64,000 nt of DNA. It comes from an uncultured bacterium (GTDB taxonomy: Bacteria; Zixibacteria; MSB-5A5; UBA10806). Of this stretch, positions 44,360 through 50,542 are shown piece by piece (positions within the stretch are counted from its first letter, which is position 1; the number at the start of each line of letters is the position of its first letter). The notes under the pieces are model-generated. The model worked only from the letters and a program-made list of their open reading frames with translations. It made no database searches and had not been told where the DNA came from. The translations under genes and the position numbers were made by a program. The DNA lies in contig CBEUCH010000001.1 in the NCBI GenBank assembly GCA_965541585.1, positions 393,460 through 457,459 on the forward strand, read 5' to 3'.

Positions 44360-44447
44360 ATTCTGCTCATTTTGATCGTCTAAAAGAATTATCCCGTAGG
44401 GGTCGGGAGCCTTTTACGAGCCTTCGGCGTGCGCACCCAACAAGCGA

Positions 44448-44556
44448 TGTCATTCCCGCGAAAGTCCTACGGATCTGTAAGACGGGAATCCAGCGGGGAG
44501 CAGACATTTCTGGATTCCCAATCAAGTCCTACGGATCTGTAGGATTGGGAATGACA
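44448..44556. repeat. Two-hairpin palindromic element (TGTCATTCCC...GGGAATGACA) carrying two 18-bp insertions
   Basis: 10-bp terminal inverted repeats; hairpins ATTCCCGC-GAAA-GCGGGAAT and ATTCCCAA-TCAAG-TTGGGAAT are each interrupted by TCCTACGGATCTGTARGA (44465-44482, 44527-44544). Confidence 0.85.
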
Positions 44557-44772
44557 CCCGGTTACCGCGAAAAAATATATTGACACCGATGGCGATATTC
44601 GCTTTTGTATATCAATGTCACCCCAGCCTCTGGCGGGGCGGCGGTTTCCCTCCCCCGGGATGATGAGACAAGGATGCTATGTGTGCGTTTGGAATGCTAT
44701 TTCTTGGAGGCTATAGGCGCTAAGGAGTGATTTCCTTATTTCCTGATGCGGAGGAGTTGAAGGCCTTTAAAA

Positions 44773-45813
44773 TTGGAGGATGAATTGAGAGTTTTTAACA
44801 TAGGATTAATTATAACCACTGTGATTATTCTTTCCTGCGCAACCTCGCGAATATCCAATCTAACTCCTATGGCGCTAAGAGATGAACCGTTAATTGAATC
44901 ATATAAAGATCCCGATTTTAGTTTCGAAAACTTTAGGACCTTTAGTGTATTTCCTAAATCATTCATAGATAGTAGTGCTCAGATACAAAATCCCATTTTG
45001 GAAAAGCAAATGCTATTTTTGCTAAGGAACTTTTTTGAAATGAATGGGTACACATTTGTTGATATCAGCGAAAACCCGGATTTTCTGGTTACCATTGATG
45101 GTTCCTCTAATTATAAGGAATCTTATGTGCCCCCACAAACTTATATGCTCCCTAGATGGGTACCAGGGAAAACCAGTACAACATATGAAACAAATAGAGG
45201 GTCATTTAATTTTAGCAATTACGGCGATTATTCTTCATATGGATGGGGTAACTGGACTGGGAATTCTAGTTCTACTACCTATACACCTGGCCACATGTCT
45301 TTCGATTCCTATTCGATTGGCGGATATTATCGTGGATCCTACTATCCTGTTCTATCTGTGCAGGCCTTCGAAGGAAGAGAATTCAAACAGATGTGGTATA
45401 GTATTGGAGTTGGGACGTCTCCAATTTCGGATTTACGAATATCCTGCCAATTTGTGCTGGCCAACATGATTTTTGATGATTTTCCGCCTTATTCAAAGCT
45501 GCCAGACTTGAAGAACGAAAGCACAGGTGCAATTGGGATTGATGTTGCTGTCTTAACGAATACAGGCAATAATTATTATCCATTTATTTCGGCTATACTA
45601 CCATATTCACCGGCATCAAAGGCAGGACTCAAAAAATGGGATATTATCCTGGAAATGAATGGAGTTTCTACCCTAAATAAGCCTTTTATAGAGACATATG
45701 AAATGTTAATGGGTGACGAAAGCACTATTATACGTCTGCGAATAAAAAGATTGGATAAAGAAAAGGAAGTAGAGGTTAGAAGAAAGCCACGTAACGAAGT
45801 ATATAGGGAATAG
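44773..45813 (+). CDS. Putative lipoprotein, DUF4136-like N-domain plus C-terminal PDZ domain
   Basis: Lipobox-like IILSC; DPDFSFENFRTF; PDZ signature AIGID..ILPYSPASKAGLKKWDIILEMNG; AT-rich; the true start may be TTG 44785. Confidence 0.75.
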   Translation: MEDELRVFNIGLIITTVIILSCATSRISNLTPMALRDEPLIESYKDPDFSFENFRTFSVFPKSFIDSSAQIQNPILEKQMLFLLRNFFEMNGYTFVDISENPDFLVTIDGSSNYKESYVPPQTYMLPRWVPGKTSTTYETNRGSFNFSNYGDYSSYGWGNWTGNSSSTTYTPGHMSFDSYSIGGYYRGSYYPVLSVQAFEGREFKQMWYSIGVGTSPISDLRISCQFVLANMIFDDFPPYSKLPDLKNESTGAIGIDVAVLTNTGNNYYPFISAILPYSPASKAGLKKWDIILEMNGVSTLNKPFIETYEMLMGDESTIIRLRIKRLDKEKEVEVRRKPRNEVYRE

Positions 45814-45869
45814 GAAGGAATGCCCTCCGGGGCGGAGCGGAACGTGAATTAAACTGAGGAGCGTAGGAA

Positions 45870-46370
45870 ATGGACGAATATAGAGAAACACGGTTGGATG
45901 ATAATGATGAAAGAAACAAGATTTGGTATGAGATTTACAATGAATCTACTTCATTGCTTGTAGAGATAGATAAAGTCCACCTAAAGCTAGGCGAATTAAG
46001 TTTGCCAAAGATGTCTCCGTTTCGGCTACGCAAAGGGTTTAATTCCATAAAAATAGAAGGGGAGAGTATCTATCCTAAATTAAATAACTGGTTGAATAGA
46101 GCGAGGGATTTTACGGAAAATCCTCATATGGTCATTATGGCAAGAATCGATGACGAGATTGATAGAGCGGTATCATATTTGCATTATGTTTCTATCATAC
46201 AGAATCGCATAAATACGTTAGAAATAAAAACGAATAACTTCCAAAGAGATCTTTACCAAGTGTGGTTACTCGTAAAACACCGAGAATCCTCTTTTTTTGC
46301 GCTTATCTTTTTTTCCGTTGGTATTATTATAGCGGTAGTTAGCACGGTTATCGGAATTATTCGCAGTTAA
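45870..46370 (+). CDS. Hypothetical protein with C-terminal TM helix
   Basis: 166 aa AT-rich ORF with upstream RBS-like sequence and hydrophobic C-terminus. Confidence 0.6.
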   Translation: MDEYRETRLDDNDERNKIWYEIYNESTSLLVEIDKVHLKLGELSLPKMSPFRLRKGFNSIKIEGESIYPKLNNWLNRARDFTENPHMVIMARIDDEIDRAVSYLHYVSIIQNRINTLEIKTNNFQRDLYQVWLLVKHRESSFFALIFFSVGIIIAVVSTVIGIIRS

Positions 46371-46577
46371 TCTTCTGCAATCCTTTGGTCTATACGAGAA
46401 TTCCCTACTCACCAAAACATGGTCTCACCTCACCACCCCGACCCGCTCCGCTACCACCGTCAGGCGGCTTATGTCGCGTTGCACCGTGCCGGTAATATCG
46501 AGGATCGATTTGCGGAAGATCCGTTCGCTGAACCGCCAGAAAGCCGCCCTCCTGGCCCAAAATCCGCAAATCCCCCC

Positions 46578-46606
46578 TTGATTTGCCTTTCCCGTCTGAT
46601 TATTAT
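46578..46606 (+). promoter_or_regulatory. Putative sigma70 promoter of the ALDH gene
   Basis: TTGATT-17 bp-TATTAT. Confidence 0.45.
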
Positions 46607-46690
46607 CGAGTTCGTGGAAAATGGGTGATGTCGGGTTATATGGCCGGACATGAATAAATGAATGAGGTGAAATAATACGGCGGAGGAACA

Positions 46691-48175
46691 ATGGCTGAGA
46701 CTTACAAAAACTACATAAACGGTGAGTGGGTGGAATCGAAGACGGGAGAGACGTTTGAGAATCGCAATCCCGCCGATACGAGCGATCTTGTGGGCGTATT
46801 CCAGAAATCCGGCGCCGAGGATGTCAATGATGCCATCACCGCCGCTTCGGAGGCATATAAGAAATGGCGTCTGGTGCCGGCTCCCAAGAGAGCGGAGATC
46901 ATATACATTATCGGTCAGAAGCTTATTGAGAAGAAGGAAGAGATCTCTCAACAGATGACCCGTGAGATGGGCAAGGTCATCAAGGAGACCCGCGGCGATA
47001 CGCAGGAGGCGATCGACATGAGTTTCCTTTACGCCGGTGAGGGACGCAGGATGTTCGGGCATACGACACCGTCGGAGATGCCCGATAAGTTCCAGATGTC
47101 GATGCGAATTCCTCTCGGCGTGGCGGCCATGATAACCCCCTGGAATTTTCCCATAGCAATACCGGCCTGGAAGATGATCCCGGCTTTAGTGTGTGGCAAT
47201 ACGTGCGTAATCAAGCCGGCCACCGACACCCCCGTTTCGGTTGTCAATTTCATGAAGGTCATGGAGGAATGCGGGATTCCGCCCGGTGTAGTGAATATGG
47301 TTACCGGTTCAGGTACGAGTGTGGGTGAACCGTTAATGACCGATAAACGGGTTAAAGTGGTGTCCTTCACAGGCTCGACCGAGACGGGACGCCGGGTCTC
47401 CGAAGCCTGCGCTTCCGATTTCAGGCACTGCCATCTCGAGATGGGCGGCAAAAACCCCATTATTATTATGGACGATGCCGATGTCGATCTGGCGGTTGAC
47501 GGCGCCGTCTGGGGCGGTTTCGGCACCACCGGACAACGCTGCACGGCAGCCTCGAGGGTGATCGTGCATAAGAGAGTATATAAACAATTTCTGGATGGAT
47601 TCGTCAAGCGGGCCAAAGCGCTGAAGGTAGGAAACGGTCTCGATGAATCGATTGAGATGGGGCCGGCGATTTCCGAGAGCCAGATGAACACCGTCCTGGA
47701 ATATATGGAGATCGGTAAGAACGAGGATAAAGCCAAACTGATGTGCGGCGGCGGCCGACTTACCGGCGGCGATTACGATCGCGGCTGGTTTACGCAGCCG
47801 ACAATATTCGCCGATGTCGATCCCCTGATGAGAATCGCAAAAGAGGAGATTTTCGGATCGGTGGTTTCGGTTATTCCATGCGATAATCTGGATCACGGAA
47901 TCGAAATAGCCAACGATACGATCTACGGGCTATCTGCGGCAGTATACACCAGTGATGTCAACAAGGCGTTCCGGGCCATCCGCGATGTTTACACCGGCTT
48001 ATTCTATGTTAACGCCTCGACAATCGGCGCCGAGGTGCATCTGCCGTTCGGAGGCACCAAACATACAGGCAACGGCCATCGTGAAGCGGGCACGGCCGCG
48101 CTCGATGTCTTCTCCGAATGGCGTTCTATCTATATCGATTTCTCGGGCAAACTGCAGAAGGCCCAGATCGACTAA
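46691..48175 (+). CDS. NAD(P)-dependent aldehyde dehydrogenase
   Basis: [22 protein letters not shown], catalytic GQRCTA, EEIFG, PFGG. Confidence 0.95.
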
Positions 48176-48200
48176 TTCTAAGATTGATCTTGATTTGCGT

Positions 48201-48336
48201 GTCACAACTTGTCCCTACGCCCATACGGGCGTCCGTATGGACGGATCTGTAAGATTGTGACCGCATGCAAGATTGTTATATGTATAACATGTAGGGGCGT
48301 CTTACAGATCCGTAGGATATTGCAATACGCCCCTAC
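48201..48336. repeat. Cluster of REP-like palindromes, each interrupted by the 18-bp micro-element
   Basis: GTCACAAC-TT-G[insert 48212-48254]TTGTGAC and GTAGGGGCG[TCTTACAGATCCGTAGGA 48300-48317]TATTGCAATACGCCCCTAC, between convergent genes. Confidence 0.85.
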
Positions 48337-48349
48337 GAGAGGATCTTAT

Positions 48350-50542
48350 TTATTTCAACAAAACCATTCTCTTCGATTCAACCGTTTCTGCCGTCTTTAA
48401 GCGATAGAAATAAATCCCGCTGGAAAGATGGGAAGCGTCGAACGTGATATGGTGAATTCCCGCCGGTCGATGAGCATCAAGCAACGTCTCGACCTCCCGG
48501 CCAAGGAGATCGTAGACGGTGAGCCTGACATCCCCCGGTTCGGGCAATGAAAAGCTGATTGAGGTGGAAGCGTTGAACGGATTCGGATAATTATGCTCAA
48601 GCGAAAACTGCTCAGGTAGGTTCTGTACTTCTTCAATGCCGGTTTGCGGGTCAAACCGCAAGATCATCAGTGAAGAAATGTCTGCTACGTAAATATAATT
48701 ACCAGCCACAAGAACATCAACAGCCTGGCCGCCCATATAGTATTCACCGGCAAATGTGGGGACTGCGGGGTCGGAAACGTCTATTATCTGGAGGCCGGAA
48801 TAATAACATGCCACATATGCGTAACCGCCGGAGACGAAAACGTCATAAGCACTACCCGGCGTATCGTAGTTTCCGGCGAGCGTCGGGTCCGTAGGCTCGG
48901 AAACGTCTATTATCTTAAGGCCGGCATATCCATCAGCCAAATAAGCGTAATCGCCGATGGCGAAGACGCCTATATAATCTCCACCCATGTCTGGAGAATA
49001 ATATCTTCCGGCGAACGTCGGGTTTGAGGGGTCGGAGACGTTTATTATCTCCAGGACGCCATCGGGATCAGATGGCCAGCAGACATAGGCGTAATTACCA
49101 GAGATGGAAACGTCAAAAATATCATAGGAGGTATCGTAGCTTCCGGATAATGTCGGATTTAAAGGATCAGAGACATTTATTATTCGGAGACCTGGATCCC
49201 AGGAATCAGCCACATAAGCGTAACTGCCGGAGACGAAAATGCCCACTGCCGCGCCCGGGGTATTACAACTTCCGACAGATCTCGGATTTGAAGGATCAGA
49301 GATATCCAAAATTTGAATACCAGGAAATGCGTCCGCCACGTAAGCGTAGCTGGCAGAAATAAAAACGGCATTGGCAGAGCCCGGCGTATCCCAGCTTCGG
49401 GTTATCGTCGGGTTTGCAGGGCTGGAAACGTCTATTATCTCGAGGATACCGTTGGGATTACGTGGCCAGCAGGCATATGCGTAACTCCCGGAGGCGAAAA
49501 TGCTGAAAACCTCATAGGGGGTATCGTAGCTTCCGGCTAAGGTTGGATTTGAGGAATTGGTGACATTTATTATTTTAATTCCGCGCTCGGCATCAGCCAT
49601 ATATGCGTAATTGCCGGATACGGAAACGCCACGGGCATCGCGGGTATCGTAACTTCCTACAAGTAACGGACTTGACGGGTCGGAAACGTTTATTATCTGA
49701 AGACCGGAATAGGAATCGGCCAAATAGGCGTAAACGCCGGAAATGAAAACGTTACAGGAGGAACTCGGTGTATCGCAGCTTCCGGCTAAGGTTGGGTCTG
49801 AGGGATCGGAAACATCGATTATCTGAAGGCCATCTTCGACGTCGGCCATATAGGCATAATTGCCGGTGACGAAAACGCCATCGGCATGGCCCGGGGTATC
49901 GTAACTTCCGGCCAGTATCGGATTTGCCGGGTCGGAAACGTCTATTATCTGGAGACCGTGAGCCCACTTGGCCACGTAGGCGTAACCTCTGGAGACAAAA
50001 ATACCATAGGCCCATTCCCCTATATCGTGTGATCCAACGAGCGTTGGATTCGAGGAGTCGGAGACGTCTATTATGTGAAGGCCCCCATCATTTCCATCAA
50101 CCACATAGGCATAACTGCCGGAGACGGAAACGTCAAAGCTCCATTCCGGCGTATCGCAGCTTCCTGTCAATATCGGATTTGACGGGTCGGAAATATCTAT
50201 TATCTGAAGGCCTGAATACCGACCGGTTACATAGGCATAACTGCCCGAAACGTCGAGACGGCGTCCGCGACCCTGTAAATGAAGCTGGCTCAGGAAGAGC
50301 GGGTTTGAAGGATCTGAGACGTCGAGAATCAACAGCCCATTGTGGAAGGCACAGTAGGCGAAATCATCGACGACCTGCACGTCTCTAACGTTATTCCATA
50401 GTGTCGAGCCGATATACTCAACATTCTGGGCGAATGCAGAACCGGCGAATGACGTACACAGGATCGCCACCAGCGAAATTGTAGATAATGGTTTTATTTT
50501 TTGCTCTCCTTGATGCTCACTATTCTTAATCTGCATATTCAT
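48350..50542 (-). CDS. LVIVD-repeat beta-propeller protein with T9SS type A C-terminal sorting domain
   Basis: Signal peptide, 13 full ~42-aa repeats (VSGNYAYVAD..GLQIIDVSDPSNP) plus one partial, C-terminal FSLEHNYPNPFN...SSGIYFYRL...KRMVLLK. Confidence 0.9.
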   Translation of the reverse strand: MNMQIKNSEHQGEQKIKPLSTISLVAILCTSFAGSAFAQNVEYIGSTLWNNVRDVQVVDDFAYCAFHNGLLILDVSDPSNPLFLSQLHLQGRGRRLDVSGSYAYVTGRYSGLQIIDISDPSNPILTGSCDTPEWSFDVSVSGSYAYVVDGNDGGLHIIDVSDSSNPTLVGSHDIGEWAYGIFVSRGYAYVAKWAHGLQIIDVSDPANPILAGSYDTPGHADGVFVTGNYAYMADVEDGLQIIDVSDPSDPTLAGSCDTPSSSCNVFISGVYAYLADSYSGLQIINVSDPSSPLLVGSYDTRDARGVSVSGNYAYMADAERGIKIINVTNSSNPTLAGSYDTPYEVFSIFASGSYAYACWPRNPNGILEIIDVSSPANPTITRSWDTPGSANAVFISASYAYVADAFPGIQILDISDPSNPRSVGSCNTPGAAVGIFVSGSYAYVADSWDPGLRIINVSDPLNPTLSGSYDTSYDIFDVSISGNYAYVCWPSDPDGVLEIINVSDPSNPTFAGRYYSPDMGGDYIGVFAIGDYAYLADGYAGLKIIDVSEPTDPTLAGNYDTPGSAYDVFVSGGYAYVACYYSGLQIIDVSDPAVPTFAGEYYMGGQAVDVLVAGNYIYVADISSLMILRFDPQTGIEEVQNLPEQFSLEHNYPNPFNASTSISFSLPEPGDVRLTVYDLLGREVETLLDAHRPAGIHHITFDASHLSSGIYFYRLKTAETVESKRMVLLK

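Follow-up and report, generated by a model that had tools for sequence, protein, structure and literature searches.

Twin mini-hairpin units of 16-24 nt, very probably mobile, inserted near the tips of repeat hairpins in an uncultured Zixibacteria genome

Four palindromic repeats in a 64,000-nt stretch of DNA from an uncultured bacterium of the Zixibacteria (assembly GCA_965541585.1, contig CBEUCH010000001.1, positions 393,460 to 457,459; hereafter the window, position 1 being its first letter) are each interrupted by one and the same 18-nt unit or a 19-nt variant of it, which we call element A. The locus raises the question of whether so small a unit moves on its own and, if it does, what it recognises and how it is moved. 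The same question surrounds the small dispersed repeats (SDRs) of cyanobacteria, as the mode of movement of elements of that size has been unexplained since their first description. What is new here is a family of covarying twin mini-hairpin units, pairs of empty and filled sites, and a testable dumbbell mechanism.

The first-pass annotation of the window had reported four copies of a very small non-autonomous mobile element, and the copies are real: three are exact 18-mers and the fourth is a 19-nt variant holding a 24-nt sister unit, against an expectation of 0.08 at up to three mismatches and 0/100 shuffles that matched the count. The hosts include repetitive extragenic palindrome (REP) hairpins and other palindromes. 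The copies and their hosts, in window coordinates, are:

44465..44482, + strand: element A, 18 nt, TCT..AGA variant, readable as two mini-hairpins (TAC loop, then GTA loop)
44452..44489, + strand: host 1, a CGTC/TGTC-tagged REP hairpin with an 8-bp stem and GAAA loop, split 1 nt 3´ of the loop
44527..44544, + strand: element A, 18 nt, T-G wobble variant
44514..44552, + strand: host 2, the inverted partner REP of host 1, with an 8-bp stem and 5-nt loop, split at the 3´ side of the loop
48212..48254, + strand: element A, 19-nt variant with a 4-nt first loop and element C nested inside
48219..48242, + strand: element C, 24 nt, readable as two mini-hairpins with 4-bp stems and ATAC and GTAT loops; register ambiguous by ~3 nt
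48201..48261, + strand: host 3, a hairpin with a 7-bp stem, split directly after its CTTG loop
48300..48317, - strand: element A, 18 nt, TCT..AGA variant
48291..48336, - strand: host 4, a GTAG-type 28-bp palindrome, split 3 nt 3´ of the loop

All four copies are intergenic, and their removal in silico restored the hairpins that had been proposed, with junctions 2-5 nt 3´ of the symmetry axis. Host 1 was typed by the features of the CGTC/TGTC REP family (PMC3733652). The genome carrying the window (G000; 3.52 Mb, 98% complete) also contains exact empty copies of host 1 (n = 1), host 2 (n = 3, together with four filled copies) and host 4 (n = 3); for host 3 there are only close empty relatives, which are related hairpins.

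A unit that is short, associated with palindromes and found in metagenome-assembled genomes could be an adapter or assembly artefact. The nested window copy is not, because an independent, divergent contig (run X3) spans 47422-48264 without a gap, nested copy included, with 65 differences in 843 letters (~92% identity). The element is also lineage-restricted, with its 15-nt core in 21 of 285 genomes of the phylum (at least three matches in eight of them) and a reversed-pattern control of 0. Together with covarying variants and loci common to different species, these results already refute an artefact, whose probability we consider negligible. The ten sequencing runs compared with the window each contain just 0.05-0.13 of its words; a loose contig end in run X3 that reads like an empty host 1 (10 letters, one contig, possibly another locus) was not counted.

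The genome-wide search for the 18-mer that had been recommended, run with a strict grammar allowing up to one mismatch, returned 43 element A loci in G000 and 0, 0 and 0 in three Markov genomes. These loci correspond to 25 junction classes. Only three overlap a mechanically called open reading frame (ORF) of at least 150 aa, in a genome whose non-ORF share is just 13%, and at 41 no direct repeat as long as 2 nt flanks the unit, bearing out the claimed lack of target-site duplication. CGTC/TGTC-tagged REPs are the commonest hosts, and there are also GTAG-type palindromes, other hairpins, sister elements and a tRNA-Gly-derived sequence; the copy in the last of these lies in the T-arm, beside a small GIY-YIG gene, and an intact tRNA 300 nt away represents the empty state. 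The perfect hairpin host described for the window holds for all window copies and less widely beyond them, as 24 of the 43 loci pass a strict hairpin-tip test. By inspection, the loci that fail comprise sister-element mini-hairpins, hosts with long loops or decay, a REP foot and chimeric flanks. Five copies have arms of two different hosts (C10:21536, C12:61067, C7:98863, C11:82547 and C2:68302), which suggests recombination or deletion through the 18-mer; copies may also serve as recombination patches that reshuffle REP arms.

To ask whether the unit moves, we compared G000 with two genomes of the same genus, G001 and G002, aligning A loci by hand-picked anchors. Of the 39 G001/G002 loci, 22 were aligned, and five of these are precise indels, two are shared filled sites, and at 15 the host repeat is missing, replaced or unalignable. 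In two of the indels element A alone differs, as an 18-nt gap with the host kept: one copy is present in G001 and missing from G000, and another is present in G000 and missing from G001. A third indel, of 35 nt, comprises A with a nested sister unit B, present in G000 and G001 and missing from G002. In the fourth, B (17 nt) is present in G002 and missing from G000, and in the fifth, C (~24 nt) is nested in A in G000 and missing at the matching site of G002. These five differences show precise gain or loss and, with exact empty hosts in G000 and filled/empty pairs among relatives, bear out the idea of a very small non-autonomous mobile element. The same comparison bears on whether the copies are instead a few ancient insertions hitchhiking with their host REPs, or protein-binding sites under selection. 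Several sites do recur within and between genomes, and two matching loci are filled in both, as such an origin would have it. The 25 junction classes in G000, the 64 distinct junctions found elsewhere and the five loci that keep the host and differ by the unit alone largely refute it, and we rate it as very improbable. The unit is thus very probably independently mobile and, at 18 nt, likely among the smallest mobile elements known. The REP position that element A occupies in G001 (locus L130) holds a ~140-nt insert in G000 (C11:84220-84380) with inverted ends and, inside, a REP pair with an E-type unit, such that one site has received different elements.

We then considered the structure of the unit, which the first-pass annotation had drawn as a single hairpin. 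Element A reads TCC-TAC-GGA then TCY-GTA-RGA. As a single hairpin, a GGA-ended copy has a fold energy of -4.4 kcal/mol, and the AGA-ended 18-mer found at 44465 and 48300 just -0.3 kcal/mol, by which we ruled out that model. The R variation is compensatory in a fold of two hairpins (T-A, T-G or C-G), and this covariation favours reading element A as two abutting mini-hairpins, the first with a TAC loop and the second with a GTA loop. A structure search of G000 for abutting 3-bp hairpins returned 16 matches in the TAC-then-GTA order versus 0 by chance, and 0 in the reverse order; other GNA loops gave 0-5 matches, and the broad class gave 123 matches versus 10. All three variable pairs are complementary in 56 of 76 two-loop frames (both strands and overlapping registers counted), compared to 0 and 0 in Markov genomes. 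There is one GTA loop on each strand of the unit, and triloops of the GNA type are known to make unusually stable DNA mini-hairpins (PMC13037366).

The sister units share this plan. B, D and E are 16-18 nt long, with first stems of GCC/GGC, CCC/GGG, GTC/GAC and CTC/GAG, and C is 24 nt long with 4-bp stems and has a second copy on contig C6, so that the whole family covers 16-24 nt. Units are nested in one another, B and C inside A, and A inside D/E-type units. No tandem or circularly permuted A was found in the structure search of G000, and the absence of permuted copies is consistent with a fixed nick. All eight sequences that were folded as circles gave a dumbbell, a short duplex capped by two loops, with an energy of -7.5 kcal/mol for closed element C. 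A different insert of ~21 nt, made of two same-strand mini-hairpins with GAA loops, lies in a CGTC-type REP of G000 (C1:265746-265786) and is possibly a second SDR-like family.

Given the claim that the element targets hairpin structure and enters at a purine|pyrimidine step, we examined the junctions. In G000, 25 copies could be oriented by their asymmetry; all 25 are followed on the 3´ side by a pyrimidine, and the junction is purine|pyrimidine in 23 of them. Scans of genomes, viral contigs and metagenomes added 64 distinct junctions outside G000, which include related hosts and are not independent; here the 3´ base is a pyrimidine at 59, the 5´ base a purine at 43, and both hold at 40. Only the 3´ pyrimidine is the rule, therefore, and neither the 5´ purine nor GTAG is conserved: GTAG stands at both ends of the element in 20 of the 43 copies and at neither end in five.

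The position within the host is likewise biased. Where a stem reaches about 6 bp or more, its 3´ arm holds 16 of the 25 oriented copies and its 5´ arm none; for 1500 random non-ORF positions the figures are 109 and 78. In the tip test, a junction had to lie -1 to +3 nt from the 3´ end of the loop in G000, and -2 to +3 nt for the new junctions. With stems of at least 7 bp, a threshold picked after a 5-bp one, tips are enriched (10/25 junction classes versus 157/1716 nearby control positions, p = 5e-5). The tip is on the element's strand at 17 asymmetric G000 loci and on the opposite strand at none; among the 64 new junctions it is on the element's strand only at 20, on both at seven, on the opposite strand only at one and on neither at 36. 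All 12 tip hits of the wobble variant, which pairs fully on one strand only, are on that strand, but this bias does not discriminate because the variant that pairs on both strands shows it too, with all five of its tip hits on the element's strand. Exceptions to the tip rule in G000 include copies at a REP's 3´ foot and copies whose two flanking arms do not match. Collectively, these data support structure-directed targeting.

How might such a unit move? We propose that the units excise and insert as single-stranded dumbbells by one strand exchange, through a predicted trans-acting enzyme, and give this mechanism a probability of about 0.5. Joining the ends of a unit would produce a 5-8-bp duplex capped by two loops, that is, a closed dumbbell, and the lower stem and the tip of a filled host, with the two mini-hairpins, can be drawn as the arms of a four-way junction. 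A single strand exchange at this junction would release the closed dumbbell and reseal the host, and the reverse exchange would insert the dumbbell without target duplication. The nick-and-rejoin enzyme would cut 3´ of a hairpin loop in donor and target alike; since the nick would lie within ~3 nt 3´ of a loop in both, one enzyme could serve both. The chemistry that fits best would be that of an HUH/Y1-type or tyrosine-type phosphotransferase, and HUH Y1 enzymes do cut and rejoin single-stranded hairpin substrates by way of circles (PMC6006769). Repeated sites and chimeric flanks would follow from recombination among the copies and from their subsequent spread along with the host REP.

Several observations weigh against this mechanism or the targeting that it builds on. 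No circle, excision product or mobilising enzyme was observed, each of the five indels may be a gain or a loss, and none of the four window hosts, folded with its insert, takes the shape of a four-way junction in its minimum-energy structure. Dumbbell circles of 16-18 nt have standard energies near zero (-1.6 to +0.8 kcal/mol), in a model that leaves out GNA-loop bonuses. With stems of at least 5 bp, tip enrichment is weak and not significant (11/25 classes versus 346/1285, p = 0.07). Characterised REP-associated tyrosine transposases (RAYTs) cut at CT or CA, guided by GTAG (PMC8266576), and the element junctions G|T, A|C, G|C and T|C differ from these sites. Lastly, RAYT-like genes occur in 35 of 41 relatives and GIY-YIG genes in 40 of 41, and genes so nearly universal do not track the element.

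Some of the same data would fit enzyme-free copying, by template switching or short gene conversion at a folded-back nascent strand just past the loop, with REP recombination thereafter. The junctions lie 0-3 nt beyond the loop, at the earliest point where a nascent strand could turn back on itself, the chimeric flanks at five loci suggest recombination through the element, and 43 loci reduce to 25 junction classes. The same 18 nt, exact at both ends, nevertheless recur in unrelated hosts that have no homology to the element, and recognition of the unit's structure is implied by its compensatory stems and by the rule of a 3´ pyrimidine. We therefore regard enzyme-free copying as unlikely.

The dumbbell mechanism predicts an enzyme, and we searched G000 for candidates. 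The GTAG tetranucleotide had been taken as a link to RAYT systems, and RAYT, Y1 transposase or reverse transcriptase genes flanked by the 18-mer had been suggested as a check. This link was not upheld: none of the four Y1/RAYT-like genes in G000 has an element copy within 5 kb. The genome, 98% complete, also gave no match to RVT_1. The four RAYT-like genes (L001, L002, L003 and L004) are each flanked by palindromes of their own, and L002 (C4:206402-209653) is clearly REPtron-like, with pairs of GTAG-tagged REPs to either side. There are also six tyrosine recombinase matches in G000.

The lack of an RVT_1 match also bears on spread through RNA, in which a transcript would be reverse-transcribed or reverse-spliced into hairpins. 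Such a route has reportedly been proposed for SDRs, and the lack of target duplication, the conserved structure and the one copy in a tRNA-Gly-derived sequence would be in line with it. In addition to the missing reverse transcriptase, the halves of the unit are strand-symmetric, GTA triloops are a DNA mini-hairpin motif (PMC13037366), and no Rfam match near gathering score was found around the window copies. Spread through RNA is highly unlikely in light of these observations.

Eight small Ssn-like GIY-YIG genes were found in G000, three of which have a copy within 300 nt (4/43 copies), compared to 0/4 RAYT-like genes, and B-type matches precede two such genes in G003. A nuclease of this kind might nick REP hairpins, with repair then capturing a stable mini-hairpin oligonucleotide. 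The gene linkage is confounded because host REPs cluster at these genes, and it is expected from that clustering; many hosts are not CGTC REPs. GIY-YIG enzymes are hydrolytic and are not known to carry out strand transfer, which also counts against capture. CGTC-type REPs, the class of Ssn substrates, make up many of the hosts, but SsnA cuts upstream of its hairpin, away from the loop (PMC11893778). We consider capture by an Ssn-like nuclease quite unlikely.

Small Ssn-like GIY-YIG genes of G000 lie between tRNA or tmRNA genes and partial copies of these (C5:213760-214244, locus L081; C6:95130-96025; C6:210181-210718; C14:53547-53741). In several of the partial copies a short hairpin stands in place of the anticodon arm, and in one case it looks like half of element A. 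At C6:95264-95832 in G000, an identical GIY-YIG gene is tandemly duplicated with a partial tRNA-Asp copy.

Beyond G000, the core of B, D and E has 7-30 matches in 7 of 41 relatives, compared to three or fewer for the control, and distribution is patchy even inside genera. The exact 18-mer has 35 matches in the genome contigs of the species collection, assigned to Candidatus Zixiibacteriota (8), uncultured Ignavibacteria (5), uncultured bacterium (16) and other phyla (6); none of the 35 has a cyanobacterial title. Each of the six matches in other phyla is a lone copy that lacks a host hairpin, and we discounted them as chance; before the 64 junctions were counted, five other-phyla matches had been dropped by label and one as a duplicate. 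Viral contigs gave two matches, neither of which passes the hairpin test.

The resemblance to SDRs that the first-pass annotation had noted is supported. SDR1-8 of the Nostocaceae, reportedly described by Elhai et al. in Genome Res in 2008, are said to be 21-27 nt long. Like the family described here, they reportedly are tiny, dispersed, non-coding units that insert precisely into palindromic sites and nest, are present or absent at conserved sites, have compensatory structure and lack a known mobiliser. Element A is dispersed in 43 non-coding copies of less than 30 nt, the family is nested in other repeats and in related units, its structure is conserved with compensatory changes, and presence differs between relatives (five precise indels at 22 aligned loci). 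Its targets are the loop tips of many REP families, whereas SDRs are said to target HIP1 or heptamer arrays. SDR5 inserts precisely into HIP1, and SDRs are restricted to Nostocaceae (PMC4390886, PMC5861425). Our family occurs in another phylum, and of its members only C (24 nt) falls within the SDR size range, A being 18-19 nt and B, D and E 16-18 nt. Because the size of element A and the lineage both differ from those of SDRs, we do not file the element as a member of an SDR family; it is SDR-like, a smaller variant of the SDR kind.

Other systems share fewer features. Like GTAG REPs and REPINs with their RAYT (TnpA-REP), the units are intergenic and hairpin-based with proposed single-stranded cut-and-rejoin mobility, and such REPs are among the hosts; unlike them, they have no unpaired GTAG at the stem foot, GTAG here being the loop and closing base and varying, no copies beside the four Y1 genes, and junctions other than CT/CA. 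The CGTC REPs, NTS and SRM of Ssn nucleases (PMC3733652, PMC11893778) are the commonest hosts, and three Ssn-like genes have adjoining copies. An SRM is a tagged 8-9-bp stem flanking ssn genes, which describes the hosts and not the unit, an insert within the SRM; SsnA cuts SRM upstream of the stem, and the element junctions are near loops. As for IS200/IS605 elements, there is no target duplication, there are two end hairpins and a single-stranded circle is the proposed intermediate, but the 20-25-nt subterminal hairpins (8-12 nt here), guide tetranucleotides, linked transposase and conserved target tetranucleotide are lacking, and left flanks vary freely. Classical MITEs (miniature transposable elements with inverted repeats) are likewise non-autonomous with empty and filled sites, but those listed in PMC3184786 are ~80 nt or longer with duplications, unlike a unit of 16-24 nt without them. 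The available portions of PMC2884548, PMC3184786, PMC2996986, PMC2700814 and PMC6006769 describe no such unit, and no description for this element or phylum turned up in the portions of the literature that the search reached. The Geobacter multicopy-sequence literature, in its available portions, describes no such insert; its supplements, outside this scope, may bear on it.

The family constrains mechanism by its exact ends, the covarying twin mini-hairpins closing into a dumbbell, the nick geometry and the pairs of empty and filled sites. These constraints allow the mechanism to be tested on short synthetic oligonucleotides with a small set of candidate enzymes. Should the dumbbell model be true, the size limit of mobile DNA would fall to ~17 nt, and the model would point to a structure-guided, scarless activity inserting single-stranded DNA. 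A broader proposal, which we put forward as speculative and on balance doubtful, is that the units represent a minimal class of mobile DNA, a covalently closed 16-24-nt dumbbell swapped at any accessible hairpin tip, for which structure rather than sequence would define both element and target, and that this chemistry may also move the SDRs of cyanobacteria and the SDR-like inserts of other phyla.

In the window, the 44465 and 44527 copies lie between genes for a 155-aa unknown protein and a DUF4136/PDZ protein, and the 48212 and 48300 copies between two further genes:

46691..48175, + strand: aldehyde dehydrogenase gene (context only)
48350..50542, - strand: gene for an LVIVD-repeat secreted protein (context only)

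In G002 the REP cluster at 44400-44570 is wholly replaced and the sequence after the dehydrogenase gene is different, and a contig in run X1 skips 44408-44570 entirely. Beside the cluster, at 44773-46370, are two AT-rich genes, for the DUF4136/PDZ protein and a 166-aa unknown protein. The former is poorly covered in three of four runs and one contig joins across the latter; the two look like variable accessory genes.

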